From a phage, in NCBI GenBank assembly GCA_011911785.1, contig GCA_011911785.1_4084.1: 64,000 nt of DNA; one strand, given 5' to 3'. This document shows positions 17,021 through 34,387 of this stretch, in pieces (within the stretch, counting starts at the first letter, position 1; each line of letters starts with the position of its first letter). Below the pieces are notes generated by a model, which was given only the letters and a program-made list of their open reading frames with translations, was not told the DNA's origin and searched no databases. The position numbers were made by a program, and so were the translations under genes.

Positions 17021-17048
17021 GGGTTGACTTAGGTCAGCCCTTTTTTTA
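17021..17048 (+). terminator. intrinsic terminator (GGGTTGAC-TTAG-GTCAGCCC plus T7)
   Basis: Hairpin plus T-run directly after sigma-like gene. Confidence 0.7.
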
Positions 17049-17560
17049 TGGGACAAAATGGATGTTCATGATACAATGATATTGTACAATTCTGTTGGCA
17101 TGGATGACATGAACCTGATCCACTCGAAAATGTAGAGGGCAGTTGAGCAGTCCAGCAGTGCGAAGTGCAGAAGAAACCCGTCAGATGTGGGCATATTATG
17201 AACCCCTCACGGCAATGCGGCACTATAAAGAACCACGTTAGGATGGCTGGTGGTTCCTCGATAGACATATAAGGATAACACCTTACGAATTATCTAAGGG
17301 AGAGTTATCAAATTTTGTACAGGAAAGTTGCGTCCAAAATTTGAGTACTCACATTAAGTATTTGATTGCATAGATACTTAATGAAGATACACTATGTTTA
17401 AAAGTGTAGACCGTCATATGAAACTGAAGTAGAGAGAAACAGGATGACCCGCTTTCGTACTCATTAAGAGTAATCTTCAATGCAATAGCTCTGATACCAT
17501 CAGCGTCAAATTCCCCTCCCAGCGGGGGGAAGAAAAATCCCTTCCTCAAATCCCGTCAAT
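17049..17560 (+). ncRNA. candidate structured non-coding region (function unknown)
   Basis: ~500 bp with no plausible ORF, locally higher GC, several G/C-rich inverted repeats. Confidence 0.2.
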
Positions 17561-17571
17561 ATTAAAAGTCC

Positions 17572-17600
17572 TTGACAGTTATTAATCATTCGCGTAGAAT
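17572..17600 (+). promoter_or_regulatory. sigma70-type promoter (TTGACA-17-TAGAAT)
   Basis: Hexamers read directly. Confidence 0.55.
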
Positions 17601-17664
17601 ACGTAGTATTAGAAGCGAACAGACATCTCGAAGAGATGGATGACTAACTATTAAGGAACATTCA

Positions 17665-17874
17665 ATGAATACTACAATCTTTTTAATTGTTGCTCTTTCA
17701 ATGCAATCCGGTGTACAAATTACCCCTATGAATTCATTAAACCAATGTTTTTCTGTACGTGATAGTACATACGAACAAGTAAACAAAAATTCTTGGATGA
17801 CAGTTAGTGAAGAACAAATGTGGTGTTACAAAAGTGATATTAAAGCGAAATTTATTGTAGGACAAACTCAATGA
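17665..17874 (+). CDS. small secreted protein
   Basis: Signal-peptide-like N-terminus. Confidence 0.5.
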   Translation: MNTTIFLIVALSMQSGVQITPMNSLNQCFSVRDSTYEQVNKNSWMTVSEEQMWCYKSDIKAKFIVGQTQ

Positions 17875-18065
17875 TTTATCGAGTGAGGTTTGAAGTTTGT
17901 AAAATTGTTTTCAATAGCAAAGGTGAAGCCTCACTCGATGAAACTCTGCACATATATAATCTCCAATTTAGGGCAAAAACAGAAGCTGATGCATTAGTAA
18001 ACATGTTTAATTTCAACCATAGGTGCGGGTATCATTTAGTAAGAGTTATAGAGGTTAAAAAGTAA
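17871..18065 (+). CDS. hypothetical protein
   Basis: ATGA overlap. Confidence 0.5.
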   Translation: MIYRVRFEVCKIVFNSKGEASLDETLHIYNLQFRAKTEADALVNMFNFNHRCGYHLVRVIEVKK

Positions 18066-18095
18066 TTACCGAATGCAGTGAAGAGGAAATCTAAA

Positions 18096-18890
18096 ATGAG
18101 TACTATCGATGAATTGATTCGACGGAATTCAAAATATTACCAACCATCAGAAATTGTGGATAATATTACTAAATCTGAGTTTGGACCTAATACTCGCAAA
18201 CTCATTCATGTAATGTCTCGTGACGGCTTTAAATGTGATTGTTGTGGTGAATCCAATGTAGTATTCACTTTACATAAGCACAGTACTAAAGAACGTTATA
18301 AATTCAGACCTTATGTACTTAAAGGGAAACGTCTTGTACGCATGACGTTAGACCATAATGTACTGGACTGTCTCCAGGGTGGTAATGATAAAGAAAACAT
18401 GACTGCACTGTGTGAGGATTGTAATGCCTTACGCCAGCATAAGTTCGCAGAGTACAGCGAGTTTAAGTACTGGTATCATAATGCAGACCGTTCAATTGAG
18501 CCTAATGTAAACTACTGCTTCATTGAGTACATCAAGAATGCAAAAGATACATACATTCTTAAATCCATGTCTCCGATTACAGTGTTTCCTGAGAATCTAT
18601 TCAGTACTATGGAGCGTGATTTTAAGCGTGGTATCATCAATGCATTCAAGCACTTAGACAAAGGTATCAAACACTTTGATGTTGAATGTTTAAATTCAGG
18701 TATGAATCGTTTAGTACAAATTTACATGAAATCGTTTATAGGTATTGACAGTGCACGACTACCAGTATATAATTACTTTATTGAAAGCGTAGAAGGTGAA
18801 TCACTTCGTGATTATGGTGAAAGATTTAATAAGAAAGTCTTCACTGCAATAGCAAATGAGATTCATTACTATAAACCATATGTAATTTAA
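18096..18890 (+). CDS. HNH-type endonuclease-like protein (possible homing endonuclease)
   Basis: CDCCG...TLDHN...GGNDKENMTALCEDCN motif arrangement typical of HNH nucleases. Confidence 0.55.
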   Translation: MSTIDELIRRNSKYYQPSEIVDNITKSEFGPNTRKLIHVMSRDGFKCDCCGESNVVFTLHKHSTKERYKFRPYVLKGKRLVRMTLDHNVLDCLQGGNDKENMTALCEDCNALRQHKFAEYSEFKYWYHNADRSIEPNVNYCFIEYIKNAKDTYILKSMSPITVFPENLFSTMERDFKRGIINAFKHLDKGIKHFDVECLNSGMNRLVQIYMKSFIGIDSARLPVYNYFIESVEGESLRDYGERFNKKVFTAIANEIHYYKPYVI

Positions 18891-18904
18891 TTAGAGGAAC
18901 TATC

Positions 18905-19072
18905 ATGCAAATCATTATCTTAATCGTTGGTATCGGTTTGGGCATCTATGGACATTCATGGGTAACTGAGAAGTTTCCTGACACCCGTCCAGATTACTGT
19001 ACAACTAAAACTGAAAGTACTGAAAGTATTGGAACTAAGATCGATAAAGTAATCGAGGTGATTAAACAATGA
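18905..19072 (+). CDS. small membrane peptide (55 aa)
   Basis: ATG after AGAGGAA; not in ORF track (<60 aa). Confidence 0.35.
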   Translation: MQIIILIVGIGLGIYGHSWVTEKFPDTRPDYCTTKTESTESIGTKIDKVIEVIKQ

Positions 19073-19160
19073 TGAAACTTAATATATTTCTGGTTGTATT
19101 CACTGTCGTTGTTATCGGTATTGGTGCACTGGCATATATCCAACCTTAAAGGAAAAATAA

Positions 19161-19361
19161 ATGTTTAAATCGAATACAAATGTTGGTAAGCAGGTTCAAT
19201 TACTTGAAGACGTATCCACTATGAGTGGAACCTTCACTAAAGGTCACATCATGACTATTATTGCCGAAACATCCCGTGGCTGGGACTTGGAAGATGCTGA
19301 TGGTAATCGCATCCTTGAGGCTGGCTTCTATGGTCATCGTGAATATAAAATCATTGATTAA
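19161..19361 (+). CDS. hypothetical protein
   Basis: ATG after AAGGAAAAA. Confidence 0.5.
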   Translation: MFKSNTNVGKQVQLLEDVSTMSGTFTKGHIMTIIAETSRGWDLEDADGNRILEAGFYGHREYKIID

Positions 19362-19459
19362 GGATGCAAACGTGACTTTAGAGATTATCGTTGGTATTGT
19401 TAGTTTTATTCATCTGTGTTGGTTGGTTTGGGTATATGATGATTTTTAGTGATTAACAC

Positions 19460-19487
19460 TTGACAGAAGATATCAGTACTGTATAAT
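19460..19487 (+). promoter_or_regulatory. sigma70-type promoter (TTGACA-16-TATAATgtttatatc)
   Basis: Consensus hexamers with cagtactgTATAAT context. Confidence 0.6.
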
Positions 19488-19532
19488 GTTTATATCAAAC
19501 GAAATCCACTTTAACAAATGATAGGAAATATT

Positions 19533-19811
19533 ATGTCTTTTACCAAAGAAGAACGTGACCTTATTAAAAAAGCAATCTGGTTTTATGCTAATGAAGGGGA
19601 GTGCGATGAAGAAAAAGCACGTGAACTGTGTAATATCCTTGAGCAGAAACAAGAACTGAAAGTGTATCGTATCCGTGTTTTGGATGATGGGGATCGTATT
19701 GTCCTAGCTGAAACAAAAGAAGAAGCAGAACAAATCTTCACTGATAAAAACGAAAATCCACATTGGATGGAAGAAGTCTGTGAAGTAAAAAAAGGTACTT
19801 ATATCGATTGA
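19533..19811 (+). CDS. hypothetical acidic protein
   Basis: Internal ATG with AGGAAA upstream. Confidence 0.5.
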   Translation: MSFTKEERDLIKKAIWFYANEGECDEEKARELCNILEQKQELKVYRIRVLDDGDRIVLAETKEEAEQIFTDKNENPHWMEEVCEVKKGTYID

Positions 19812-19836
19812 CTGTACTGAATAATAGCAGTATAAT
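19808..19836 (+). promoter_or_regulatory. sigma70-type promoter (TTGACT-17-TATAAT)
   Basis: Hexamers; followed by a long imperfect hairpin in the leader. Confidence 0.55.
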
Positions 19837-19929
19837 GTTTATATCAAAGGGAATGCAGTGAAAGGAAAGACAGCATAATCGTACTCGTCACTGCGTTCCC
19901 GCCCTTTTAAATTAAATGAGGAATTAACT

Positions 19930-20238
19930 ATGTTTCAAACTAACACTCAAGGTTTTGTAATCATCGATTTGAATCAAAACAGCGGTTATTGGATGAAACC
20001 TACTGACGCATGTATGCAGTTTGATTTTTTAGGTTACAGGATTAGTGTAAGTACTGGTGCTTCTGTACTGCGTGGTGGTTGTATCGTTGAACATCTGGTA
20101 ACTGATCCAGAAGGTCGTGAGTATGAAATCGCAGGTTCAGTACAAGATGCCATTATGTTTGTATGTCAGCGTGAAATGAATGGTTCGAATTCAAATGCAC
20201 TGACTCATGCTCTTTCTCAAGAAGTGGAGGTTCGTTAA
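19930..20238 (+). CDS. hypothetical protein
   Basis: ATG after GAGGAA. Confidence 0.55.
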   Translation: MFQTNTQGFVIIDLNQNSGYWMKPTDACMQFDFLGYRISVSTGASVLRGGCIVEHLVTDPEGREYEIAGSVQDAIMFVCQREMNGSNSNALTHALSQEVEVR

Positions 20239-20483
20239 TGAAATATATTGTAGCAGTACTCGTCGCATTTTTACTCACTGCATGTGATGCTTCAACCAAA
20301 GAACGAACTAGTGAGTTTGTTTTACCAACTGAACTCAAAGAAGCAGGGTGTAAGATTTATCGTATGCAACAAGACGGTGCTGGTGCATCTTTGTACACTG
20401 TGTACTGTCGTAATGCAAACACTACTACGTCTTATATGAGTGGTAAAGTTCGCGTGGATACATCTGTGGTTCATGGAGAATAA
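20238..20483 (+). CDS. small lipoprotein (lipobox LTAC)
   Basis: Signal peptide plus LTAC lipobox; TAATG overlap. Confidence 0.55.
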   Translation: MKYIVAVLVAFLLTACDASTKERTSEFVLPTELKEAGCKIYRMQQDGAGASLYTVYCRNANTTTSYMSGKVRVDTSVVHGE

Positions 20484-20485
20484 CA

Positions 20486-20854
20486 ATGAGTCTTGATACT
20501 ACTCGTTCGGCAAATATCTTAAAACGTTTGAATGACGAAGAATATCTAGCTAATACACGATATCAGCTTGAAAAACTCAGTCGAAATGTAAAATATATTG
20601 ATATCACTACACAGCTTCCACTGGATGAATATCACAAGTTAAACGAAGATATTGTATATCACCCAAATGAAATTTGGATTGAGTGGGAATCATGGACCCA
20701 CTCGGTTCTCCGTATCGAGGGCTATTGTGTGAAATATGAAAGTTCACTAGGTGATTTTACAAAAAAACTGTCGATATTGTGCACTGACACACATGAAATA
20801 GTTGAGGTGAATTTGAATCATATGAAGGGTTGCCGTTGGGGAGATCTTAAATGA
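20486..20854 (+). CDS. hypothetical protein
   Basis: ORF in tight array. Confidence 0.55.
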   Translation: MSLDTTRSANILKRLNDEEYLANTRYQLEKLSRNVKYIDITTQLPLDEYHKLNEDIVYHPNEIWIEWESWTHSVLRIEGYCVKYESSLGDFTKKLSILCTDTHEIVEVNLNHMKGCRWGDLK

Positions 20855-21126
20855 TTAAAAAACTATTGACTGTGTTTGTTGTATTCTGTACAATGTTTCT
20901 TACAGCATGTAATGATGACGGCAGGTTAAGTGCAAAAGACTTAGCTCGATATGATTGTACATTCACAGGTAAGTCTTTTATTAACGAGTATGAGGTATGC
21001 ACACAATCAGGTCGTATCTGTGGTGGTTGGGAGAAACGTCAGGAGCGATTGTATGTATATGAATGTCCTGGGCAACTCAACAAAGTAATAAGTACTCACA
21101 AACTTGTTTATGATAAGGTTGAATAA
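20851..21126 (+). CDS. small lipoprotein (lipobox LTAC)
   Basis: Signal peptide plus lipobox; ATGA overlap. Confidence 0.55.
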   Translation: MIKKLLTVFVVFCTMFLTACNDDGRLSAKDLARYDCTFTGKSFINEYEVCTQSGRICGGWEKRQERLYVYECPGQLNKVISTHKLVYDKVE

Positions 21127-21335
21127 TGACTACCAATGAAATGATGCAGGTTATCTGGAATAAAGGTTGTGATCTTAAAATCACTAGTACTGATGTTCGT
21201 GTATTCAAAACTGAATACATGGAATACTTGGACCTTGATACTTATAATAATATTGTATCAATTGAACACAAAGGTGCAGTACTGGAAACAATTGACGTTG
21301 TTCTCAAGAAAGCAACGGATTTATTGGGAGCATAA
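21126..21335 (+). CDS. hypothetical protein
   Basis: TAATG overlap. Confidence 0.5.
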   Translation: MTTNEMMQVIWNKGCDLKITSTDVRVFKTEYMEYLDLDTYNNIVSIEHKGAVLETIDVVLKKATDLLGA

Positions 21336-21336
21336 G

Positions 21337-21483
21337 GTGAACAATAAAGAATGGGAAGAGTACCGCAAGAAGTGCCGAGAGTTTGATAAAGAACTCACTG
21401 GTACTGTGAACGCAGTAATGTGGGTATCTGCAATAATTGCAGTACTGGGACTGTTTGCAGTTATCATTAATAAGTTTTTTTGA
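21337..21483 (+). CDS. small C-terminally membrane-anchored protein (GTG start)
   Basis: GTG with GGGAG upstream; track ORF 21169 overlaps previous gene. Confidence 0.35.
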   Translation: MNNKEWEEYRKKCREFDKELTGTVNAVMWVSAIIAVLGLFAVIINKFF

Positions 21484-21492
21484 GGAATACAC

Positions 21493-21693
21493 ATGTTTAC
21501 TTTATATCTAGCCGTAGTACTAACAAATGGTGAAATCACACGTACATTAGGTGACGGTGTATATAAAACACCTGAGCAGTGTTATTCTGCGACACACTGG
21601 CCTCGTGATGCTGGTGAAGAAACTCGTACCGAATACAAATGTATGAAGGTCAAAGGTGACTTTGTTAACCTTAAGGTCATTGAGGTGAAGTAG
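21493..21693 (+). CDS. hypothetical protein
   Basis: ATG after GAGGAA. Confidence 0.5.
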   Translation: MFTLYLAVVLTNGEITRTLGDGVYKTPEQCYSATHWPRDAGEETRTEYKCMKVKGDFVNLKVIEVK

Positions 21694-22199
21694 TGAATCT
21701 TAGTACTGATAAGTTTGTAAAGTTCATAGAGTTTATCAACTTCAATGAGAGCTACAATGGTACGTACAATACTATGAATATTGTATCTGATAAAGTATTT
21801 GATAGTACAATGTTCTATTTGTATGATACAAACGGTGATAAGCTGTGTGATGTTACATTCGGTATTGGTGATCTTTTTGAATCTGCGGTTTATCTATCTA
21901 AACCAACGGTGCGTGATACATATGAAATTCACTTTCATAATAGACCGAATCACAAAAACATTGTAGAATATGATATACCATCATCACACGAACTGTTCAT
22001 TGTAGATTACAGTACTGAAGAGGGTGTATTTCAAAGTTCATTGCTATACAACTTTGAACTACACGATCCTGATATTCCTAAAGTACTGGCAATTTCCAAT
22101 AAGGTATGTGAATTGCCATATAACATATACATGTCAGTTCCTGGTAAAAGAGTAGGTAATTTCTGTAAAGCCTTTGACATACAAGCGGATGATAAATGA
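21693..22199 (+). CDS. hypothetical protein (weak EE-YFQ-S-like motif STEEGVFQSS)
   Basis: Overlapping start; degenerate family motif. Confidence 0.55.
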   Translation: MNLSTDKFVKFIEFINFNESYNGTYNTMNIVSDKVFDSTMFYLYDTNGDKLCDVTFGIGDLFESAVYLSKPTVRDTYEIHFHNRPNHKNIVEYDIPSSHELFIVDYSTEEGVFQSSLLYNFELHDPDIPKVLAISNKVCELPYNIYMSVPGKRVGNFCKAFDIQADDK

Positions 22200-22420
22200 A
22201 CAGATACGTGATTGAATACGTGGGTATATCTGAATTTGATAACATTCGTGGCTATGAAAAGGTCATGAGTGAACGCACGATATATGTTAGGGGTCGCGAT
22301 GAAGCCCATGTTCTCTCTTTACTGTTAAATGACCTGACAAAGTTCAATACAACAAAGACACAACGTTATATTGAAACAATTAAATCTATTAAACTTTTAG
22401 ACGAGGATGATGAAGAATGA
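22196..22420 (+). CDS. hypothetical protein
   Basis: ATGA overlap. Confidence 0.5.
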   Translation: MNRYVIEYVGISEFDNIRGYEKVMSERTIYVRGRDEAHVLSLLLNDLTKFNTTKTQRYIETIKSIKLLDEDDEE

Positions 22421-22629
22421 ATTTATATCTAGTAGAAGGTACAGTGCAGGTTTTCCGTTTTGATGGTGATCGTGGTATGCGTTTCTCACATGTTGAAGAA
22501 TTTAAATTTGTCGTACATGCAGAAGGTGAGTACGAAGCAGAGATTAAAGTATCTGAATCCTTTGATAAGAAAGAAACAGTAGATGTACAGTATCAGCAAC
22601 TACAATTTAAAGTGTGGCCTACGCTTTAA
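22417..22629 (+). CDS. hypothetical protein
   Basis: ATGA overlap. Confidence 0.5.
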   Translation: MNLYLVEGTVQVFRFDGDRGMRFSHVEEFKFVVHAEGEYEAEIKVSESFDKKETVDVQYQQLQFKVWPTL

Positions 22630-22633
22630 AAAC

Positions 22634-22662
22634 TTGACACGCATGTAAAAAGCGAGTATTAT
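22634..22662 (+). promoter_or_regulatory. sigma70-type promoter (TTGACA-17-TATTAT)
   Basis: Hexamers read directly. Confidence 0.5.
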
Positions 22663-22693
22663 ATCTGTATTATGAATTAACTGAGGAATACGT

Positions 22694-23359
22694 ATGCTCG
22701 CCAATTTAAGTTACATTATTAGTGATGATATGGTACAAAGTCGTGGTATGTATCTTGAGAAAGTTCCATACGATAGCGATGGTATCAAAGGAACTTTATA
22801 CGAAAGTCGTTTTGACAGAAAGCATCCATTCTGGGAAAAGGCTAATCTAACGGAAGAAGATAGTAATCGTTTATTTTGTGCTGTGCAGACGCCTACACCT
22901 GGTATATTAGCGGGTTATGGTATAGATAAAGTCATTAACTTTATGACAGACTATGAAGTTATTAAAAGTCTGCAATATATTAATACGAACAATGGTGAGT
23001 TCTATAATTCTGATGATTTTCTTGCTATGTGTAGTGCTTCATATGAGAGTGAATTATTGCCAAGTGGTAGACCATTCCCATTGTCAACACATTGTAATTC
23101 CCCTTACGGTGTAGCTGACAACTTACAGCAGATCCTTAAGAAACATAAGAATGTTCTTACATCTGAAATGGAAGTTGTTATTGGATTTCATCCAGTGTAC
23201 AAGGAAGATCAACCTGAACATGGTGGGTGGCGTTGGCATAAGCACGGCACATACATTGGTACTCATAAGAAAAAGCATGAGTACTTGTATGATGAAGAAG
23301 GTATTGATGTTGTTTATTGTTACGAACTAATCCCAGTAAAGAAAAAGGAAACACTATAA
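22694..23359 (+). CDS. hypothetical protein
   Basis: ATG after GAGGAA. Confidence 0.55.
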   Translation: MLANLSYIISDDMVQSRGMYLEKVPYDSDGIKGTLYESRFDRKHPFWEKANLTEEDSNRLFCAVQTPTPGILAGYGIDKVINFMTDYEVIKSLQYINTNNGEFYNSDDFLAMCSASYESELLPSGRPFPLSTHCNSPYGVADNLQQILKKHKNVLTSEMEVVIGFHPVYKEDQPEHGGWRWHKHGTYIGTHKKKHEYLYDEEGIDVVYCYELIPVKKKETL

Positions 23360-23601
23360 TGTTAATTTTATACGTTGTACTGATTTTATTAGTTAACTTT
23401 TCTCCAACTATTTTAACTTTAGTATGGGGTAAATTTTATGATGCTGTAAAAGTATTTCTCTTGAATACTGCATGGGTATTGGTAAGTCTGACTCTTTATT
23501 GGTCTACTGATTGGATGATGATTGTGAGTCATATACTACTATATATTTCATTCCTAATGTTGTTCCAAGAAAAAGAAGTACTTGACAAACTTGAAGGTTA
23601 G
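23359..23601 (+). CDS. small membrane protein
   Basis: Internal ATG with AAGGAA upstream; hydrophobic. Confidence 0.45.
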   Translation: MLILYVVLILLVNFSPTILTLVWGKFYDAVKVFLLNTAWVLVSLTLYWSTDWMMIVSHILLYISFLMLFQEKEVLDKLEG

Positions 23602-23610
23602 ACCTATAAT
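23582..23610 (+). promoter_or_regulatory. sigma70-type promoter (TTGACA-17-TATAAT)
   Basis: Consensus hexamers. Confidence 0.55.
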
Positions 23611-23633: not shown

Positions 23634-23894
23634 ATGGCAGTAGGGTTTGGTTCACCAGATAACCACCAAGAAACGATACAAGCAACTATTGATAATGCTA
23701 TTGACTTTGCTCGCTCAAATCTGTATAGTGGTGAGTCTGAAGAGTACTGCATCGACTGTGACTGTGAGATACCAGAGAAGCGGAGGTTAGTACTGAAGGG
23801 TGTAAAACGATGTGTTCAGTGTCAATCAAAGGTTGACAAGGTATATCAAGAGCGTTATAATAGACGTGGAAGTAAAGACAGCCAACTCCGTTAA
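23634..23894 (+). CDS. C4 zinc-finger protein (TraR/DksA-like)
   Basis: CIDCDC...CVQC motif near C-terminus. Confidence 0.45.
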   Translation: MAVGFGSPDNHQETIQATIDNAIDFARSNLYSGESEEYCIDCDCEIPEKRRLVLKGVKRCVQCQSKVDKVYQERYNRRGSKDSQLR

Positions 23895-25093: not shown

Positions 25094-25443
25094 TGAAAGT
25101 TATATTATTTTTTATGTGTATTATTATGTGTGGTGTCTCTTATGCTGCACCCTTAGCCGGATTGCTTTGTAAAGAGAATTCTGAACAACACATATTCCAA
25201 GGGGATTCAGATGACCTTGATATCATTTACATCGATGGTACTGAATATACATACGTTAAAGACCATACTGTTGGTGATATCAGTTTCACTGAATATGCAA
25301 AAACAGGTGACACTGATTATAGAGCCTACCTTCAAGTGAATATGATAGAGGGTGAAGACGGAACACAAGAAGTCAAACTCGTACTTAAACGTATTGGAGA
25401 TAAGGAGGCTGATTTTGGAGGTGAGTGTACATATGATGATTGA
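25090..25443 (+). CDS. secreted small protein; paralog of 24339..24704
   Basis: Signal peptide; ATGA overlap. Confidence 0.5.
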   Translation: MMKVILFFMCIIMCGVSYAAPLAGLLCKENSEQHIFQGDSDDLDIIYIDGTEYTYVKDHTVGDISFTEYAKTGDTDYRAYLQVNMIEGEDGTQEVKLVLKRIGDKEADFGGECTYDD

Positions 25444-25450
25444 TTAAAAA

Positions 25451-25483
25451 AGGTTGACTAACGTCAGCCTTTTTTGTTATACT
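25451..25483 (+). terminator. terminator hairpin fused to extended -10 promoter (TGtTATACT)
   Basis: AGGTTGACTAACGTCAGCCT hairpin, T-run, then -10. Confidence 0.6.
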
Positions 25484-26588: not shown

Positions 26589-26813
26589 ATGAAATACATG
26601 CTGGTGGCATTAATGTTTGTGAGCACGATAGTACAAGCCAGAATCAAGTACTTTGTGAAGTGTACAAACGTTAGCGGTGGCTACACAGAGACATATCAGG
26701 GTAAGTCGGTTAAGATGGCAATACACAATGATAGAGGAACAGTGATTTTCCTTGTGAATGATATAATCATTTTGTACAAACCAGATGTACCATGTGAAGT
26801 AAAAAGATATTAA
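26589..26813 (+). CDS. secreted small protein
   Basis: Signal peptide. Confidence 0.5.
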   Translation: MKYMLVALMFVSTIVQARIKYFVKCTNVSGGYTETYQGKSVKMAIHNDRGTVIFLVNDIIILYKPDVPCEVKRY

Positions 26814-26819
26814 ACTACG

Positions 26820-26850
26820 GGGTTGGCATAAGTCAGCCCTTTTGTATAAT
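26820..26850 (+). terminator. terminator hairpin fused to -10 (TGTATAAT)
   Basis: GGGTTGGC-ATAA-GTCAGCCC hairpin with wobble pairs, T-run, TATAAT. Confidence 0.55.
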
Positions 26851-26858: not shown

Positions 26859-27437
26859 ATGAACCGTAAAGGTAAGTTTAAAGTATCAAAGAAGAATAAA
26901 AGTGGAAGGTTCAATGATATATGCTTAGGTTTTATCAAAGCACACAATAAACTTTCTGCCCTGAGTAGAAAGATAGTATCTAACAAGATTGATATTAGAT
27001 ATATAAGTACTAACAATAGTACAGGGAAAGATGCACATCCAACTGAAAATATTATTTCAGTATCCTTCGTATACGATGGTCTGGACATTACGATAGATGA
27101 TTACAGACGATACGGTACTGGGTTTATACGTATCTATTGCAGAGATGCATCTGATAAGCCGGAACGTATTCGTATTATCGGTACATTGAGTGCTGGTATA
27201 TTTGAGTGGGAGATTGTTCAACTTAAAACTATCGATGAGTACACCACAAGTTCTAATATTATTGAGTTGAATTGTAATGTGAAAGACCTCCCAAACTTGA
27301 GCGAAGAAGAATATTTTCAAGAAAGCTTGCTAACGCCAAATTTGGATGATATAATTAAACAATATAAGACAATGGTGTACTTCTTCAAATGTATCAAACC
27401 TAAGACTTGTTTGATGAATATTGTCCGTGATCTATAA
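26859..27437 (+). CDS. hypothetical protein, EE-YFQ-S module family (SEEEYFQES)
   Basis: ATG 8 nt after the -10 (possible leaderless start); conserved C-terminal module. Confidence 0.5.
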   Translation: MNRKGKFKVSKKNKSGRFNDICLGFIKAHNKLSALSRKIVSNKIDIRYISTNNSTGKDAHPTENIISVSFVYDGLDITIDDYRRYGTGFIRIYCRDASDKPERIRIIGTLSAGIFEWEIVQLKTIDEYTTSSNIIELNCNVKDLPNLSEEEYFQESLLTPNLDDIIKQYKTMVYFFKCIKPKTCLMNIVRDL

Positions 27438-27880: not shown

Positions 27881-28104
27881 TGAAAAGGTATAAAATTGAA
27901 TACCTACTTAAAGTAAGAGAGAAAAGTATTAGTAGTGAGAAATACACCAGTGAGATATTCGTCAGAGATGAGTATTACATTGGTGAAAATGAAGTTGAAG
28001 TACTGTTACAATGCATAGAAAATGAATTTCGAGATATGACACGTTATATGTCATTTGAGATATCGTGTGCAAAAGTTACATTCTTGAACAATACTTCATA
28101 TTAA
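27877..28104 (+). CDS. hypothetical protein
   Basis: GTGA overlap. Confidence 0.5.
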   Translation: MMKRYKIEYLLKVREKSISSEKYTSEIFVRDEYYIGENEVEVLLQCIENEFRDMTRYMSFEISCAKVTFLNNTSY

Positions 28105-28108
28105 AAAA

Positions 28109-28133
28109 GGGTTGACTTTTGTTGACCCTTTTT
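28109..28133 (+). terminator. intrinsic terminator (GGGTTGAC-TTTT-GTTGACCC plus T-run)
   Basis: Hairpin with wobble pairs plus T5. Confidence 0.6.
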
Positions 28134-28175
28134 GCTATTCTATAAATATGACATAGAGGTAACATTTAATAATCT

Positions 28176-29726
28176 ATGGAGAAAAAAATGCCAGATAATT
28201 TTAAATCAAAAAGTGGGGCAACACTTTCTGGACATTCGGAGAAATGGGCTGAAAAAAATCGTCGCCAATCAAGTCATGACGCAGGTCAAGGTTCCCGTGG
28301 CTCTCGCAACCAAGGAACGGGAGAAGCGGGGAAAGCAAACACAGTTGCATCACAGGGTCTTGATACTTCAAACATGTCCCAGCATGAAAAATTGAAGTAC
28401 TTCAATAGTCTTGGTCTTTTAAATCCGCAGCAGAAGCAACAACTTGCTGCTCTGGATAAAGCACAAGAACAACCTAAAGCAGCACCTGAAGCACCTGCAC
28501 AGCCTAAAGCGGCTAATCCGGTAAAAGAACTAAGTGATAAACTTGGGAAGATCTTTGCTAACAAACCACAACTAATTCAAGGTATCGTAAAAGCACTTCA
28601 AGCGGTTCCTAAAGAACAACTCAAGGATAAAGCACAAGCTGTTCTTGATAGTATGAAAGGGAATACCAGTACTGAACCAACTGAAGTATTCAGTACTATC
28701 ATGCGTGCACTTGAAGGTAAGCCACAGGCTGATGATGATATTGAGTTTGATGAACCTGCACAAGAAGTAGCAAATCTTGACTCAATCGTTTCTACATTTG
28801 GAAAAATTGGTGCAGAAGATAAGACTAATGCACAACAAGTTAAGAATGTACAAGCTAAGTTACAAAATCGTCTTGAAGGTAAAGATGAAAAGATTAAACT
28901 TGCAGCAGATGCGTTGAAGAAAGCATTAGAATCATATAAACCTGGTGAGAAATCTCGCTTCATTACTGCAATGAATGCAGTATTCGGTGCAATGAAGAAG
29001 TATGAAGCTGAACACGGTGAGAAAGTAACTCCTGATGGATATCTCCTTCGCAAAGATGAAGAAGGTGCTGTTGACCAGAAGAACGCTGAACCAGACTATA
29101 GTGATTTACCGGATACAGTTGATATGGATGGATACATTCATCGTCCTGATATGCAAGAATTTGGTTCAGACAAAGAAGGTTTTGAACATGCTATGGCTGT
29201 GTACAAAGCATTAGTCGATAATCCACAATATGCAAATAGTTTTGTAGATGAGTTTGATAGTGCATGGAACAACTACCAAGACAAAGGATATGATTTCCCA
29301 GCAGAAGCAGCATTCTTTGAACTAGGTAAACTTCTTGCTAAAAATGGTATTAATGTTGGTTCTAATGGTGAAGCAAACACTTCGGAAATGGACGCTGAAT
29401 TGGCTAAAGATCGTAAAATGACTGATAAGTCAATTCATGAACTACAAAAGCTAATGATGTGGATTGCTGAAATTGGCAAGAAAGCTGGTGCAGATCCTAA
29501 GAGCATTAACAGCAATATTAGTTGGATTAAACATAAGGTTGATAACAATGCCCGTAAATTACAAAAGGCATGGACCGACCTAGTGAATGGTGCAGACGAT
29601 GTTGATATCGATTCACCAGAAGCATACGAGTACGCATTGAACACACTTGATAACTCTTTCCAGGATTACGAAAATGGTAACGTAACTGATTGGGAAAAGG
29701 ATATCATGCATAAGTACGGTAAATGA
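28176..29726 (+). CDS. hypothetical 516-aa charged, Ala/Lys/Glu-rich protein
   Basis: ATG after GGAGAAAAAA; bracketed by terminators; likely helical from composition. Confidence 0.65.
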   Translation: MEKKMPDNFKSKSGATLSGHSEKWAEKNRRQSSHDAGQGSRGSRNQGTGEAGKANTVASQGLDTSNMSQHEKLKYFNSLGLLNPQQKQQLAALDKAQEQPKAAPEAPAQPKAANPVKELSDKLGKIFANKPQLIQGIVKALQAVPKEQLKDKAQAVLDSMKGNTSTEPTEVFSTIMRALEGKPQADDDIEFDEPAQEVANLDSIVSTFGKIGAEDKTNAQQVKNVQAKLQNRLEGKDEKIKLAADALKKALESYKPGEKSRFITAMNAVFGAMKKYEAEHGEKVTPDGYLLRKDEEGAVDQKNAEPDYSDLPDTVDMDGYIHRPDMQEFGSDKEGFEHAMAVYKALVDNPQYANSFVDEFDSAWNNYQDKGYDFPAEAAFFELGKLLAKNGINVGSNGEANTSEMDAELAKDRKMTDKSIHELQKLMMWIAEIGKKAGADPKSINSNISWIKHKVDNNARKLQKAWTDLVNGADDVDIDSPEAYEYALNTLDNSFQDYENGNVTDWEKDIMHKYGK

Positions 29727-29735
29727 TAAAAAAAG

Positions 29736-29768
29736 AGGTTGACTTCGGTCAGCCTTTTTTGCTATAAT
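29736..29768 (+). terminator. terminator hairpin (UUCG loop) fused to extended -10 promoter (TGcTATAAT)
   Basis: AGGTTGACTTCGGTCAGCCT, T6, TGCTATAAT. Confidence 0.7.
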
Positions 29769-29795
29769 ACTCACATAACCTAAAGGAGAAACTCT

Positions 29796-30071
29796 ATGAA
29801 CACCTACGAACGTTTAGTTGGCTCAATGCGTTATGAAGAAATTTTAAGTGATATTGAAGAACTGAAAGACTCTAAAAGTTACATCCACTTAGATGAACTT
29901 ATCGTGAAGTATGGGGAGGTTGGTGCAAAAGAATTAATTTGCTTTATGGTTCATGTTCGAAATTTAAATTACTTTGATCTTTCATCGAAGAACGGTGAAC
30001 CGAATCTTTATTATCTATATTATTTGAAACATAAAGATGCATGTAATAAATTATTCTTAGAACTTTTATAA
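29796..30071 (+). CDS. hypothetical protein
   Basis: ATG after AAAGGAGAA. Confidence 0.55.
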   Translation: MNTYERLVGSMRYEEILSDIEELKDSKSYIHLDELIVKYGEVGAKELICFMVHVRNLNYFDLSSKNGEPNLYYLYYLKHKDACNKLFLELL

Positions 30072-30084
30072 CTGGAGATATCTA

Positions 30085-30345
30085 ATGCAAAACCCTGAAT
30101 TGAAAATGTTTACACAAATCCGTCTTGCTCGTGTTGAACATGACACTAACTATGTACTGAACGATGGTCCTCCACAACGCGTTGAAGTTGGTTATATTGA
30201 CGTTGATAATTCACAATCTCTTCTGATTACCATTGGATCTAACTCTTACAGTGTTGCTACACTGGAGAGTGTATTGTCCCTGGCACAATCCGCAAGGATT
30301 GCCCGTAACGCTCTTATGAACTGTGATGAACCTGATAATGAATGA
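30085..30345 (+). CDS. hypothetical protein
   Basis: ATG after GGAGATATCTA. Confidence 0.55.
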   Translation: MQNPELKMFTQIRLARVEHDTNYVLNDGPPQRVEVGYIDVDNSQSLLITIGSNSYSVATLESVLSLAQSARIARNALMNCDEPDNE

Positions 30346-30676
30346 TTATATGTATGAATTAAACCTGGTATCGTTTATCGTATCAGGACTAGGATGGATG
30401 TACTATATGCTTGGGTATATTTTATTATTCTTCCGATACAATACATTCTACAAACGCTATTGGGATGATGCACCAATTCACTTCTTCGCATTTGTATTCT
30501 TAACTATGGCAGTGGGTGAAGTACTGCTAACTGGTATCCAAAGTACTGGTGGAATGATGTGCACACTAACAACATTCTTTGTTGTTTTTGGGACTGTAGT
30601 TTGGTTTTTCGCGTGGGGACTCTTCTCTTTGATTATGAAACTTGAGAAACTCCGAGACAAATTACCAGAGCGTTGA
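30323..30676 (+). CDS. multi-pass membrane protein (start uncertain)
   Basis: Hydrophobic; overlaps end of previous gene. Confidence 0.45.
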   Translation: MMNLIMNDYMYELNLVSFIVSGLGWMYYMLGYILLFFRYNTFYKRYWDDAPIHFFAFVFLTMAVGEVLLTGIQSTGGMMCTLTTFFVVFGTVVWFFAWGLFSLIMKLEKLRDKLPER

Positions 30677-30686
30677 TGAAAAGTAT

Positions 30687-30714
30687 TTGACAAACTCAAC
30701 TAGTACTGTATAAT
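30687..30714 (+). promoter_or_regulatory. sigma70-type promoter (TTGACA-16-TATAAT) with leader hairpin
   Basis: Hexamers; GGGATGA/TCATCCC hairpin at 30725-30743 before SD. Confidence 0.6.
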
Positions 30715-30761
30715 GTTTATCAAGGGGATGAACTTCTCATCCCTTCAATCGAGGAACTACC

Positions 30762-31316
30762 ATGATTACTTTTAAGAAAACTGCCAACCACATCCATGAA
30801 ATCTACATTAACGGTCACAAAGCTGGCCTTCTTCGTTTACTCGCCCATCATCCTGATGCTACCGTATCTGATAATGAACCTAAAGATTGGCGTGTCTTTT
30901 TCTTTGGGAAGTACAGTGATTTTCAAGTATCAAACCTGAAGAACATTCGTTCAGTGTGTACGTTAACTGAAATTAAAGAAAAATTAGCAGAAGCATTGAA
31001 AACTAATCTAGATGGAGTTCTTCCACCTGATAACTTTGTAGAGAAAGGTTATGCCTTAGCTCATTTCAAAGATGGAACTATTCAATCTATCTATACTGCA
31101 TATGAATATCAATGGACTGAGTACTTCACTTATGGCTCCCGTGATACTTTGATGGCTTCACGTAGTAAATTGGAAGAAGTATTAACTATTATAAATGAAC
31201 GTGAACGTCATTTATATGATAAACCTGAAATGTGGAGTTCAACTTACATTGACCGTATTGACTATGTTATGATGACTCCAATCTTTGACACTGCTTACTA
31301 TGATTCTATGAAATAA
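30762..31316 (+). CDS. hypothetical protein
   Basis: ATG after GAGGAACTACC. Confidence 0.6.
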   Translation: MITFKKTANHIHEIYINGHKAGLLRLLAHHPDATVSDNEPKDWRVFFFGKYSDFQVSNLKNIRSVCTLTEIKEKLAEALKTNLDGVLPPDNFVEKGYALAHFKDGTIQSIYTAYEYQWTEYFTYGSRDTLMASRSKLEEVLTIINERERHLYDKPEMWSSTYIDRIDYVMMTPIFDTAYYDSMK

Positions 31317-31327
31317 GGATAACTTAT

Positions 31328-31504
31328 ATGAAACTACGTACTCGCAATCGTTTGATGGATGAACTGTACCACGAACGCTATACATTGAATGAAGTAAAGC
31401 GTCAGTTAATGCATACCTATCAGTTACCAGCCCGTGCAGCGAAACAACGTGCTAACGAATTGCTGAAAGAAGCAATCGAGTACTGGGAATCTGATTCGTA
31501 CTAA
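31328..31504 (+). CDS. small basic protein (58 aa)
   Basis: ATG after AAGGATAA; below ORF-track size cutoff. Confidence 0.4.
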   Translation: MKLRTRNRLMDELYHERYTLNEVKRQLMHTYQLPARAAKQRANELLKEAIEYWESDSY

Positions 31505-31543
31505 TATTACGTGATATGTCACGTTAATTAAGTGAGGCGATAA

Positions 31544-31795
31544 ATGAAAATTTTATTAGTTCTAATACTACTAATTGTTTTACCATTTACTTTAGTATCC
31601 CCTGAACTTGCATGGAATGTGTTTGTGTACTTAGTATGTACTATTGTAGTAAATGGTATCTTGTTCTTAGTTCTATTCATAAATGGAATAGGACACGGTG
31701 GAGGATGGACCAGTACTGCTGATATTGTACATAAAACCACTATGTCTTTATTTGTAGTGTGGAATTTATTCTGGACTTGGTTTGTGTTCTTCTAA
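31544..31795 (+). CDS. small multi-pass membrane protein
   Basis: ATG after GAGGCGATAA; hydrophobic. Confidence 0.5.
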   Translation: MKILLVLILLIVLPFTLVSPELAWNVFVYLVCTIVVNGILFLVLFINGIGHGGGWTSTADIVHKTTMSLFVVWNLFWTWFVFF

Positions 31796-31803
31796 TTAAA
31801 AAT

Positions 31804-32175
31804 ATGAATATAGATTTGAAAGGTGCAACCAGAACTGTTATCCTTATTGGGGATTATGCTATCAAGATTCCAACCTTCAAAAGCTGGAAGTTATTCCTAA
31901 CTGGAATGATAGCTAACCTCAATGAACGCTCATGGATGCAGTACTCCAAGCGTAGTGACAGTGGGATATGTCCTACTCTGTGGTCATCGCGAACTGGCTT
32001 AATAACAGTACAGAAACGTTGTAAGCCAGTACAACATAGGGGTTTGTTTTGGGTGGAGTTGAGTGCATTAGCATTGAATTCAGAGTTGAGTACTGACTTC
32101 TTCTATTCAGATGCGAAGCCAGAAAACTTTGGATATTTGAATGGTAAGTTAGTTAAGCTTGATTATGGAGATTAA
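31804..32175 (+). CDS. small protein with kinase-like motifs (DAKPEN, DYGD)
   Basis: Motifs resemble kinase catalytic loop and DFG; only ~124 aa, assignment tentative. Confidence 0.4.
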   Translation: MNIDLKGATRTVILIGDYAIKIPTFKSWKLFLTGMIANLNERSWMQYSKRSDSGICPTLWSSRTGLITVQKRCKPVQHRGLFWVELSALALNSELSTDFFYSDAKPENFGYLNGKLVKLDYGD

Positions 32176-32202
32176 TATGTACGCATTGTATAATAAAGAA
32201 AA

Positions 32203-32235
32203 GGGTTGACTTCAGTCAGCCCTTTTTGCTATAAT
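32203..32235 (+). terminator. terminator hairpin fused to extended -10 promoter (TGcTATAAT)
   Basis: GGGTTGACTTCAGTCAGCCC, T5, TGCTATAAT. Confidence 0.7.
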
Positions 32236-32263
32236 TATTTCATCGAAACGAGAGGATGAATAC

Positions 32264-32701
32264 ATGACACGCATTAACTTAGTACACGTTAAAGAACTTG
32301 CTGACCAACATCTGATGGCTGAATATCGTGAACTTCCACGTGTGTTTGGTGCTGTACAAAAACATGTTCAAGCACGTAAGCGTGTACGTGATTTCAAAAT
32401 TAACAGTACTTATCTGTTAGGTTCAGGTCATGTAACATTCTTCTACGACAAGTTACTGTACTTACAGAAGCGTCATATTGATATTGTTAACGAATGTTTG
32501 CGTCGTGGTATGAAGATTCAAAACACTGAAGTAAACGACATTAGCGGCTTCCCTGCTGAGTTTTGTAATGACTACGTACCATCGGAGTCCGAGATTAAAA
32601 CATCACGCGAGCGTTTGATTGAGAAGCTTCAGATGAAGCCTAAGTGGTATAAGTTTACTGATGTTGAGCTACCTGTATATTATGTTGATATGATACAATG
32701 A
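32264..32701 (+). CDS. denV: endonuclease V (pyrimidine dimer DNA glycosylase/AP lyase), T4 DenV-like
   Basis: [35 protein letters not shown]...[10 protein letters not shown] matches T4 endonuclease V as recalled from memory along most of its length. Confidence 0.9.
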
Positions 32702-32925
32702 ATGATGAAGAATTCAAAAAATATGCGATTGAGAAGCTTGATTCATACAAGCCACGCGAAACGTATAAATTTAATCCTGATAAAACAAAAGCATCTATAA
32801 GATGGTTGATTAATTCACCCAAATATACATTTGATGAAAAATATTCATGGATAGTGCAATGTAGTGATTATGAGGATTTGGTATATAATATTAAACTGTG
32901 TTGGTATGAATACAACAATAAATGA
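32698..32925 (+). CDS. hypothetical protein
   Basis: ATGA overlap with denV. Confidence 0.5.
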
Positions 32926-32931
32926 TATAAG

Positions 32932-32964
32932 GGGTTGACTTCGGTCAGCCCTTTTTGCTATAAT
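32932..32964 (+). terminator. terminator hairpin (UUCG loop) fused to extended -10 promoter
   Basis: GGGTTGACTTCGGTCAGCCC, T5, TGCTATAAT. Confidence 0.7.
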
Positions 32965-32990
32965 CATTTCATCAACTCAAGAGGTAACAC

Positions 32991-33227
32991 ATGAAACTAT
33001 CTTTTATACGTTTAGCAGAATTCTTCGGTACTGATGTAATTACTCTACAACAAATCGCAGATAATACATCATTAACTACGCAAGAAGTACTTGACTTAGA
33101 TGTAATTAAGAGCGATAATACTTCCATTGATTTCAAAGAAGGTCTTGTCGAAAAAGATAAGATTCAAGCTAAGATTCATGGTGCTGGGCGGGTTCAGTAC
33201 TGGAAAGGAGTTTTAAGTAATGTTTGA
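32991..33227 (+). CDS. hypothetical protein
   Basis: ATG after AGAGGTAACAC. Confidence 0.5.
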   Translation: MKLSFIRLAEFFGTDVITLQQIADNTSLTTQEVLDLDVIKSDNTSIDFKEGLVEKDKIQAKIHGAGRVQYWKGVLSNV

Positions 33228-34347
33228 ACAGTACTATTTTAATGAAGATGGTGAAAAAGTTTATTTTTATGAAGAGCATGGAATGCTTTTTGAGTGGATG
33301 AAAGCCGAAGATATAAATTTTGTAAAAAAATCCAACATTGCTCAAGATCCTATTAGTATTATGGGTGAAATAAATGATCCAAGAGTTCTTGGATTCTATA
33401 TCAATAGATCACAAGATTATATATCTAAATCAAAAACCAAACTTGTAGTGAATAACGATGGTATGTTAGTTATTGGAGCCACCTGCACGAATTTTATTAG
33501 GCAGGGATTTAATGGGAAGATTTTTTACAATATTATTAATATTCCATATTACAGCCTTAATCATATTAGTGTCATCAACAAAAAATATGGTTATGATAAA
33601 TTTACTTATAGTGGAATAACTTCGTTTAACTCTACACTTCCTAGTAGAACTAAAATTGAAGTAGTATGTAATGATTGTGGTGATATAAAAAAACCCACAA
33701 TTACTGACTTAGCTACTGGTAAAATTGGTTGTCAAGAATGCACGAAACAAACTTTAGGTGAATTTATAAAAAAATCACATCTTATACACGGAAATAAGTA
33801 TGATTATTCTTTATATGACTACATTAACAACCAAGTAACCTCTATTATAATATGCAAAGAACATGGTGAATTTCAACAAACACCAAATTCACATCTGTCT
33901 GGTTCTGGTTGTCCCACGTGTGCAGTAAAAGGATTTAAAACTTCCAAGCCTGGAAGATTTTATATTCACAATGATTATGCAAAAAAATCGGATAAAGCTG
34001 GTATTACAAACAAAACTATTAAAGCAAGATTAAGTCCACAAAACTTATCTTATAAAAAAATATATAAAGTAGATAATTTTTGGAGTAATGAAATTTCCAT
34101 TTTATTTCATAAGAATGTGGGTGGGAAACTTGCTAGAGAATTGGAAATAATAATACATACAATTGCGTTATGTGGTAAACTATATAATAAAGGTTATTAT
34201 GAAAAGGGAGATGGTTGCACAGAAACATTCAATAATATCCATCGTCCTAAAGTTAATGAAGCCATTAAAAAATTCTTAGCTGAACATGAAGGAGAATACA
34301 TCATTGAACGTGATATCAATGGTATTTTTGGTGAAGTGATTGTATAA
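33220..34347 (+). CDS. hypothetical protein with Cys/His zinc-ribbon-like motifs (possible nuclease)
   Basis: CNDC, CQEC, CKEHG, HLSGSGCPTC motifs; function not established. Confidence 0.5.
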   Translation: MFEQYYFNEDGEKVYFYEEHGMLFEWMKAEDINFVKKSNIAQDPISIMGEINDPRVLGFYINRSQDYISKSKTKLVVNNDGMLVIGATCTNFIRQGFNGKIFYNIINIPYYSLNHISVINKKYGYDKFTYSGITSFNSTLPSRTKIEVVCNDCGDIKKPTITDLATGKIGCQECTKQTLGEFIKKSHLIHGNKYDYSLYDYINNQVTSIIICKEHGEFQQTPNSHLSGSGCPTCAVKGFKTSKPGRFYIHNDYAKKSDKAGITNKTIKARLSPQNLSYKKIYKVDNFWSNEISILFHKNVGGKLARELEIIIHTIALCGKLYNKGYYEKGDGCTETFNNIHRPKVNEAIKKFLAEHEGEYIIERDINGIFGEVIV

Positions 34348-34355
34348 AACAAAAA

Positions 34356-34387
34356 GGTTGACTTCGGTCAGCCCTTTTTGCTATAAT
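34356..34387 (+). terminator. terminator hairpin (UUCG loop) fused to extended -10 promoter
   Basis: GGTTGACTTCGGTCAGCC, T5, TGCTATAAT. Confidence 0.7.

Follow-up and report, generated by a model that had tools for sequence, protein, structure and literature searches.

Probable composite terminator-promoter modules in the early region of an Escherichia coli jumbo myophage of the genus Asteriusvirus

The DNA analyzed here (the window) is a stretch of 64,000 nucleotides (nt) from phage contig GCA_011911785.1_4084.1, and the element in question is a short intergenic repeat that appears to combine an intrinsic transcription terminator with a sigma-70 promoter. Sequence matches to relatives assign the window to an E. 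coli jumbo myophage of the genus Asteriusvirus (RaK2/121Q group). Between 28 and 36 kb it is 97% identical to Escherichia phage A4 and shows patchwise identity of 84-94% to 121Q, the PBECO4-like phage slurp01, phAPEC6, CMSTMSU and others. In A4, the counterpart of window positions 16-37 kb consists almost entirely of small hypothetical genes on the + strand. Only two genes stand out from this series, one for a sigma-70-family factor (16051-17013) and one for a denV-type endonuclease V (32264-32701). At the start of the region, the A4 annotation lists a sigma-70-family protein of 320 amino acids (aa) together with a second fragment of 92 aa. For CBB, a related phage, an equivalent block of short open reading frames (ORFs) around a sigma-factor gene, with many RpoD-like promoters, was proposed as early region (PMC5259590). 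By analogy with that proposal, we propose that the region studied here may be an early, host-takeover block.

The repeat consists of an A-run, the inverted repeat GGGTTGAC-NNNN-GTCAGCCC and a run of four to seven T residues (T4-7). We found exactly eight copies in the 64 kb, all on the + strand and all located among the small hypothetical genes between 17.0 and 34.4 kb. A profile built from these copies recovered just the same eight, and the remaining matches were their palindromic reverse-strand images. When up to two mismatches were allowed, GGGTTGACTTCGGTCAGCCC was matched by 5/8 sites, and no match was obtained in 100 shuffled sequences; the sites at 25451, 26820 and 28109 are clear variants of the repeat consensus. 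A chance origin of the repeat is rejected by these shuffles and by the background frequencies of -10 hexamers given below. The copies also share a common setting. The stop codon of a long + strand ORF lies 5-10 nt 5' of the stem (28 nt at 32203), either behind or inside an A-run, and in six copies an ATG preceded by a GAGG-type Shine-Dalgarno sequence follows 40-48 nt past the stem. Two copies deviate from this geometry: no gene follows at 17021, and at 26820 the ATG is located 20 nt past the stem.

These data confirm the eight-copy repeat that had been reported in the original prediction. All of its sites are present, although the copy listed at 34356 is better placed at 34355, and several details had to be corrected. 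The hairpins described as carrying a TTCG loop and T5-7 were recovered, but the loop reads TTCG in just 3/8 copies (TTAG, TAAC, ATAA, TTTT and TTCA in the other five) and the T-runs vary from T4 to T7. Among relatives, TTCG is the loop consensus, with 7/8 copies in 121Q as an example. Direct fusion to TGcTATAAT had been claimed for five sites, but TGCTATAAT is exact at only four sites (29736, 32203, 32932, 34355), and the element, put at about 35 base pairs (bp), measures about 43 nt from the A-run to the -10 hexamer. The eight modules are as follows.

17011-17047, + strand: module 1, terminator only (A-run, hairpin 17021-17040, loop TTAG, T7, no -10)
25441-25483, + strand: module 2 (hairpin 25451-25470, loop TAAC, T6, -35 TTGACT at 25454-25459)
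26810-26850, + strand: module 3 (hairpin 26820-26839, loop ATAA, -35 TTGGCA, 16-bp spacer, TATAAT at 26845-26850, no TGn)
28099-28148, + strand: module 4, late-promoter variant (hairpin 28109-28128, loop TTTT, T5)
29726-29768, + strand: module 5, canonical (hairpin 29736-29755, loop TTCG, T6, TTGACT + 18 bp + TGcTATAAT at 29739-29768)
32193-32235, + strand: module 6, canonical (hairpin 32203-32222, loop TTCA, promoter 32206-32235)
32922-32964, + strand: module 7, canonical, exact match to the consensus (hairpin 32932-32951, loop TTCG, promoter 32935-32964)
34345-34387, + strand: module 8, canonical (hairpin 34355-34374, loop TTCG, promoter 34358-34387)

Module 17021 is located 8 nt 3' of the stop codon of the sigma-70-family factor gene and folds with -21 kcal/mol. 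The putative promoter of module 25451 has an 18-bp spacer and TGt + TATACT at 25478-25483 (TGTTATACT), and an ATG follows about 44 nt past the stem. For module 26820, the A4 counterpart reads TTGACA at the -35 position. In the window, just about 8 nt separate the -10 hexamer from the ATG at 26859. Since transcription would start at about this ATG, use of the promoter for the gene at 26859 is doubtful, or the messenger RNA would be leaderless. Module 29736 is positioned between the end of a structural gene and the gene at 29796-30071, with a predicted transcription start near 29775. Module 32203, with its predicted start at A 32242 (ATCGAAAC), precedes the denV-like endonuclease V gene, and a module before denV is also present in the RaK2 and CBB loci. 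It can be seen that not every copy is dual, as 17021 has no promoter half and the promoter of 26820 is doubtful.

Module 28109 carries a different promoter half. Its 3' arm (GTTGACCC) involves two wobble pairs and it has a weak -10, TGcTATTCT (TGCTATTCT), at 28136-28141. Directly after the hairpin we found TATAAATA (28141-28148), which is the T4 late-promoter consensus and occurs once in the 64 kb, compared with 12 +/- 3 expected occurrences. The gene that follows (28176-29726) is bracketed by the hairpins 28109 and 29736, and its orthologue is annotated as virion structural protein in 121Q and WPEC5. Thus, TATAAATA appears to be strongly avoided in the window, the exception being its position before the single virion structural gene in the early block. 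For CBB and GAP32, a comparable ATAAATA motif has been put forward as late signal (PMC5259590), and from its sequence context 28176-29726 looks like a late gene insulated within the early block.

To characterize the promoter half, we searched 483 kb of related and unrelated phage loci with a covariance model and obtained 114 unique copies of the element. In the window, TTGACT, an 18-bp spacer and TGnTATAAT reach a score of 11/12 at 29739-29768, 32206-32235, 32935-32964 and 34358-34387. A -10-like hexamer is present 16-18 bp past the -35 of the 5' arm in 7/8 copies, and nothing comparable exists at 17021. Among the 114 copies, a -10 hexamer (at least 4/6 matches with A2 and T6) was detected in 106, at 17 or 18 bp in 103 of these and with TG in 89, but the covariance model contained the -10 region and this census is biased toward copies having one. 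For an unbiased set, we selected copies in IMG/VR by the hairpin 18-mer only, which yielded 52 unique contexts. Here, a -10 at 17 or 18 bp was found in 47/52 (90%) and TG in 41/52 (79%), whereas the corresponding background frequencies of the window are 7.6% and 0.76%. The TTGAC of the 5' arm, which the original prediction had considered a possible -35-like element, is invariant in 112/114 copies while its pairing partners vary, and its role as -35 is well supported by this pattern. In the annotation of Yersinia phage fHe-Yen9-03 the element is labelled with -35/-10 signals, and the -35 feature falls on the hairpin TTGAC. Judged from its position, the A-run upstream may be a UP-like element. 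Finally, in 19 copies from several phage groups the motif ATCGAAA begins exactly 6 nt past the -10, which places an A at the expected +1.

The copies with ATCGAAA(C) come from 13 sources, which comprise RaK2-like phages, Certrevirus CR3 and several uncultivated phage contigs. The conservation of this motif seems to go beyond the needs of a promoter alone.

The hairpin-associated promoters are not the only sigma-70-type signals of this block. Five perfect (12/12) sigma-70 promoters lack hairpins (18745-18773, 19460-19487, 23582-23610, 23833-23861, 30687-30714), so that the block contains two promoter flavours, TTGACA-17-TATAAT and the hairpin-type TTGACT-18-TGnTATAAT. This duality, together with the sigma-70-family protein and fragment annotated in A4 at the start of the region, would fit a scenario in which the promoter half is read by the phage sigma factor encoded at 16051-17013 and not by host sigma-70, and the modules would then be of the middle rather than the early class. 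However, we consider this scenario improbable. The hexamers are a near-perfect host consensus with an extended -10, and near-identical modules are shared by Certrevirus CR3, Aeromonas phage 65 and Brochothrix A9, members of other families that may or may not encode such a factor. Moreover, the non-host promoter class proposed for CBB and GAP32 is another motif, TGAAACG + TATA (PMC5259590).

Alternatively, the elements might be plain intrinsic terminators, in which AT-rich DNA and the T-run incidentally generate hexamers resembling -10 and -35. Module 17021 is exactly such a terminator, and annotators who used ARNold labelled the elements as terminators only. In addition, a 23-mer comprising hairpin and T-run occurs seven times in 596 Gb of bacterial genomes, where T6-7 follows; inspection by eye of the sequence after these seven copies revealed no TGnTATAAT-type promoter half. 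Incidental hexamers do not account, however, for the 90% and 79% frequencies among copies selected by their hairpin, and a terminator alone does not require that TTGAC is frozen while its partner drifts. The conserved start-site motif exactly 6 nt past the -10 and the Shine-Dalgarno sequence and ATG at fixed distance also argue against it, and we assign a very low probability to this explanation.

Next to the promoter signals, the sequences suggest a hairpin that is formed in the sense RNA. This hairpin consists of an 8-bp GC-clamped stem and a tetraloop and is often lengthened by pairing between A-run and U-run. For the eight modules, free energies between -14.4 and -21 kcal/mol and z-scores between -3.7 and -6.9 were calculated, and a U-tract follows in each case. 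The antisense hairpin is weaker in 8/8 modules (-4.7 to -14.4 kcal/mol) because the U.G wobble at stem position 4, which is present in 99/114 copies, turns into a C.A mismatch on the other strand. All eight pairs are kept in 109/114 copies. Outside the -35 we observed compensatory changes at stem position 1 (G-C 88, A-T 16, T-A 3) and also at position 3. Within the -35 hexamer, T, T and G of the 5' arm are invariant and their partners toggle between G and A opposite U and between C and U opposite G, which gives 29 wobble-compatible partner variants against 2 non-pairs. This pairing pattern therefore suggests selection for the sense-RNA hairpin and speaks against a cruciform or a symmetric protein-binding site. 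The loops of the 114 copies belong mostly to the stable UNCG and GNRA tetraloop classes. The modules display the features by which intrinsic terminators are recognized (GC-rich stem of at least 5 bp, short loop, U-rich tract on the 3' side, sense orientation, position at a gene end), and in the annotation of phage G17 ARNold terminators are placed at the corresponding elements. When the whole window was searched against the curated Rfam families at the gathering threshold, only five tRNAs were retrieved and the modules remained without match. In E-value mode, the segment at about 17000-17700 gave only sub-threshold matches (17000-17081), which reflect likeness to the terminator ends of small RNAs.

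These data also bear on the possibility that the modules are promoters only and that the inverted repeat acts as DNA (as cruciform or as operator controlling access to the -35) or stabilizes a read-through RNA. The -35 does lie inside the repeat, palindromes are typical operator shapes and the T-runs are short. On the other hand, the U.G wobble at stem position 4 and the other wobbles pair in the sense RNA only, and because of this strand specificity the cruciform and operator variants of this idea were rejected. Stable loop classes, a location behind stop codons combined with a U-tract, which is the classical terminator layout, and the existence of module 17021 without any promoter leave a pure promoter function with hardly any probability.

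Taken together, the sense-RNA hairpin and the sigma-70 promoter both appear to be under selection, and we consider it probable that the modules are composite terminator-promoter cassettes of the promoter-early stem-loop (PeSL) type, located in the early region of a 121Q/RaK2-type jumbo myophage. As RNA, GGGUUGAC-loop-GUCAGCCC plus the U-tract would act as intrinsic terminator for polymerase arriving from upstream, and would end the upstream transcript and cap its 3' end. As duplex DNA, the same segment would be a host sigma-70 promoter with the TTGAC(T) of the 5' arm as -35. Loop, 3' arm and T-run would form the spacer of 17-18 bp, and the end of the T-run would provide the TG of the extended -10 before TATAAT. 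Transcription would restart about 7 nt past the -10 and would yield a leader of 20-25 nt with a Shine-Dalgarno sequence. This scaffold apparently accepts other promoter halves, such as TATAAATA at 28109, or none as at 17021. The proposal that one element ends the upstream transcript and starts the next is in line with the sequence and comparative evidence for the family, but it does not apply to 17021 and is doubtful for 26820.

The overlap of the two signals might even hand the terminating polymerase over to the downstream promoter, so that the transcript is reset without loss of polymerase flux. This is speculation on our side; in single-molecule work on other templates, RNA polymerase was retained and slid along the DNA after intrinsic termination (PMC6978380, PMC10372574).

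When the window was compared with its relatives, breakpoints of homology coincided with modules. At the position of the single module 25451, A4 (96-99% identical to the window) contains two modules (locus L001, 9096 and 9453) with two small ORFs between them. The segment 33222-34347 differs from A4, 121Q and slurp01 by a gene replacement that has module 34355 as its right edge, and the upstream gene of the window at this module is shared with WPEC5 and not with the closest relative A4. Homology blocks relative to 121Q, slurp01 and WPEC5 begin or end at modules 25451, 28109, 29736, 32203, 32932 and 34355. Breaks of homology were counted at 6/7 module junctions versus 10/32 other gene junctions (one-sided Fisher p = 0.013, with comparison genomes that are not independent). 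In 5/5 orthologous pairs between the window and 121Q, conservation extends over the module (71-97%) and the downstream gene (67-97%), and the 300 nt upstream are 55-59% identical, which is the level of unrelated sequences. Across the five genomes compared, one and the same unit of module and downstream gene has two or three alternative upstream neighbours. A half-module from which the 3' arm has been lost is present in 121Q (L004:17132) and resembles the degraded PeSLs of Comeau et al. (PMC4122927).

The near-identical unit of 45-55 nt may thus be a homology patch for recombination, at which cassettes composed of a promoter half, one or more genes and the next terminator half would be inserted, deleted and exchanged between related phages. 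Recombination between modules had been anticipated in the original prediction, and the cassette indels and gene replacements bounded by modules support this. Its picture of a modular, insulated organization holds insofar as modules delimit units; these comprise 1 to about 22 genes each, and there is not one module per gene.

Three further observations concern gene exchange in these phages. WPEC5 (L049, 18135-19600) has an additional cassette, headed by a module and coding for an 'endonuclease' and a DUF4379 protein, which is inserted between denV and the next module and is a possible example of a nuclease gene, perhaps mobile, that travels with its own module. The hairpin-free promoter at 30687 coincides with the left edge of a block of 92-93% identity common to 121Q, slurp01 and WPEC5, and plain promoters may also serve as exchange points. 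A 520-bp segment (18115-18636) within ORF 18078-18890 (270 aa) is missing from A4, where the ORF has 87 aa, and is present in slurp01; this segment is not bounded by modules.

Modules at cassette boundaries, with the WPEC5 nuclease cassette lying between two of them, might also indicate that the repeats are primarily recombination or mobility sites for a dedicated recombinase or nuclease and that their likeness to regulatory signals is secondary. The authors of the PeSL study left a targeted recombinase possible (PMC2839356). However, no conserved recombinase was seen adjoining the modules, and transcription signals fully account for RNA pairing, -35, spacing, TG and -10. About 45-55 nt of near identity would presumably suffice for general phage recombination. 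We consider it very unlikely that the modules are primarily sites for a dedicated enzyme.

Several points weigh against the composite interpretation. In most copies of the family the T-run is short (T4-T5 followed by G), and termination may be partial and attenuator-like. The commonest spacer (18 bp) is GC-rich and suboptimal for sigma-70. Module 17021 lacks a promoter, and 26820 would yield a leaderless messenger RNA. The gene of a phage sigma-70-family factor lies immediately upstream of the modules, so that the host holoenzyme is only the presumed user of these promoters. The bias of the 114-copy census counts here as well, and the breakpoint statistic is modest, as 3/4 of the comparison genomes are mutually close and the comparisons are not independent. 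Our literature search found no mapping of RNA 5' or 3' ends for this phage or close relatives. Termination, initiation, timing, holoenzyme, promoter strength and recombination mechanism are inferred from the sequence.

Apart from the modules, the surroundings of module 17021 attracted our attention. Downstream of the sigma-factor gene and this module, about 520 nt (17050-17570) contain no ORF, are richer in G+C and are conserved in A4 (99.7%) and slurp01 (82.5%). This segment is located between a weak promoter-like site (17050-17077) and TTGACA-17-TAGAAT (17572-17600), and it ends with a CCCCTCCCAGCGGGGGG hairpin near 17514-17531. It gave no Rfam match and its fold reaches a z-score of only -1.9; it may be a non-coding RNA.

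Outside the region corresponding to that of the window, some modules are followed by ACTAACCCATAGGGTGCA instead of a Shine-Dalgarno sequence and ATG. Such copies were found in 121Q (L018, 1954, 5648 and 8946) and in fHe-Yen9-03 (L002, 52 and 2421), and ACTAACCCATAGGGTGCA also follows modules in a 357-kb IMG/VR contig (L025) and in a 108-kb contig (L009). It starts roughly 15-30 nt past the -10, and AGTACT boxes and a second promoter-like site (AAAAGTACTTGCA...TATAAT) come next. No ORF follows these modules, a tRNA search and Rfam gave no match, and ACTAACCCATAGGGTGCA is absent from the window. A small RNA or a regulated leader are possible interpretations.

Elsewhere in the window, a tRNA cluster at 922-3217 (Gly-TCC, Ser-GCT, Met-CAT, Asn-GTT, Thr-TGT) has no associated module. 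The segment from about 38000 to 56000 is oriented along the minus strand, with reversed GC skew, and lacks module copies as well. By homology to A4 and 121Q it contains a long tandem array of RCC1-like paralogues, which are annotated as 'putative DNA condensation protein'.

To define the distribution of the repeat unit, we looked beyond the Asteriusvirus group and found it, often base for base, across RaK2-like genera. These include Klebsiella phages RaK2 and K64-1, Yersinia phages fHe-Yen9-03/04, Serratia phage BF, Salmonella phages Munch and 7t3, Pectobacterium phage CBB and Erwinia and Cronobacter phages. Among Escherichia phages, 35 records matched the module. Unrelated carriers are Certrevirus CR3 and its relatives, the T4-like Aeromonas phage 65 and Brochothrix phage A9 (Herelleviridae), whose host is Gram-positive. 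KVP40-like Vibrio phages carry the unit with TATAAATA. A bacterial origin or mimicry of a host element was rejected, as the 23-mer of hairpin and T-run is almost absent from bacterial genomes. The cassette may have spread horizontally as a mobile regulatory unit or may have arisen by repeated convergence. Convergence is conceivable, as a sequence that has to accommodate -35, C(UUCG)G tetraloop, GC clamp and the overlap of U-tract and TG retains almost no free positions. One might go further and regard GGGTTGAC-UUCG-GTCAGCCC-T(n)-TGnTATAAT as a minimal 'stop-and-restart' cassette that is nearly universal among large virulent phages, with hand-over of the polymerase as a further step, but we consider this generalization rather unlikely.

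If the composite interpretation is correct, the modules would help annotation, since they would map early transcription units in 121Q/RaK2-type phages, in which most genes lack known function, and would flag the one insulated late gene in the early block. For evolutionary studies, they would mark the joints at which accessory-gene cassettes are exchanged and would extend the PeSL mechanism past the T4-like phages. The frozen 5' arm facing a wobbling 3' arm would be a clean natural case of RNA structure and DNA promoter constraints acting on one sequence. The stop-and-start unit of about 43 nt might also be usable as an insulator part, if both activities are confirmed.

Among known systems, the modules most closely recall the PeSLs of T4-like phages (RB49/phi1, PST/T4, nt-1/KVP40; Arbiol et al. 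2010, PMC2839356; Comeau et al. 2014, PMC4122927). By definition, a PeSL combines a stem-loop terminator with a sigma-70 promoter; its 5' edge is AT-rich and contains the upstream stop codon, and its 3' edge carries Shine-Dalgarno sequence and ATG. They are grouped into five positional subclasses, which include stem-loops overlapping the -35 or lying between -35 and -10, and they are enriched in hyperplastic regions and implicated in cassette shuffling and mini-circle formation (PMC2839356, PMC4122927). For RB49/phi1, reporter assays showed terminator and strong promoter activity (PMC2839356). At the sequence level the window modules have all the defining features, namely the hexamers, the stem-loop, both edges, a plastic region of small genes and the association with indels. 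In both systems the repeated intergenic units are about 50-100 nt long and comprise stop codon, sigma-70 hexamers, stem-loop, Shine-Dalgarno sequence and ATG. Both occur among small ORFans of plastic early regions, are tied to indels and replacements and include degraded halves. The PmSL variants of nt-1 use another promoter class, which parallels module 28109 with TATAAATA (PMC4122927).

There are also differences from the PeSLs. The modules described here belong to a RaK2/121Q-type jumbo phage (Asteriusvirus) and not to Straboviridae, and each early region has no more than about 8-9 of them. Their arrangement is fixed: the 5' arm invariably contains the -35, and the U-tract leads into TGn and the -10 without exception, whereas PeSLs fall into five subclasses. 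They have the specific stem GGGTTGAC/GTCAGCCC, usually with a C(UUCG)G loop, in contrast to the G(n)-loop-C(n) of PeSLs. Promoter and terminator activity and mini-circles are experimental findings for RB49/phi1, whereas the activities of the window modules are predictions.

With intrinsic terminators in general, the modules share the 8-bp GC-rich stem, the tetraloop and the U-tract after stop codons, and an A-run is also found in bidirectional terminators. In the modules, however, the 5' arm is frozen as -35, the U-tract is cut to T4-5 by the extended -10 and the antisense hairpin is weakened by C.A mismatches, and bacterial copies of the hairpin lack the promoter half. The early promoters predicted for CBB and PA5oct are similar in TTGAC, the 17-18 bp spacer, TGnTATAAT, the A-rich upstream sequence, the grouping with short early ORFs and the vicinity of a sigma-factor gene, but in the accessible parts of these two papers promoters and terminators are listed separately and not as one overlapping element (PMC5259590, PMC7318152). 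We found no description of the composite element in the literature on the RaK2/121Q group (RaK2, CBB, PA5oct, UE-S1, fEgEco12), where the two kinds of signal are either itemized apart from each other or left undiscussed, with the GAP32 paper outside this search. Lambdoid morons are likewise autonomous transcription cassettes inserted between neighbouring genes, but their signals are not conserved repeats and are not regarded as mediators of insertion, whereas here the repeat is the junction (PMC2839356). Judged by their sequence, the modules belong to the already described PeSL concept, and the idea of a composite element is not new. Within this concept, the modules have a notably rigid sub-architecture, in which the 5' arm consistently harbours the -35 and the U-tract merges with TGn and the -10.

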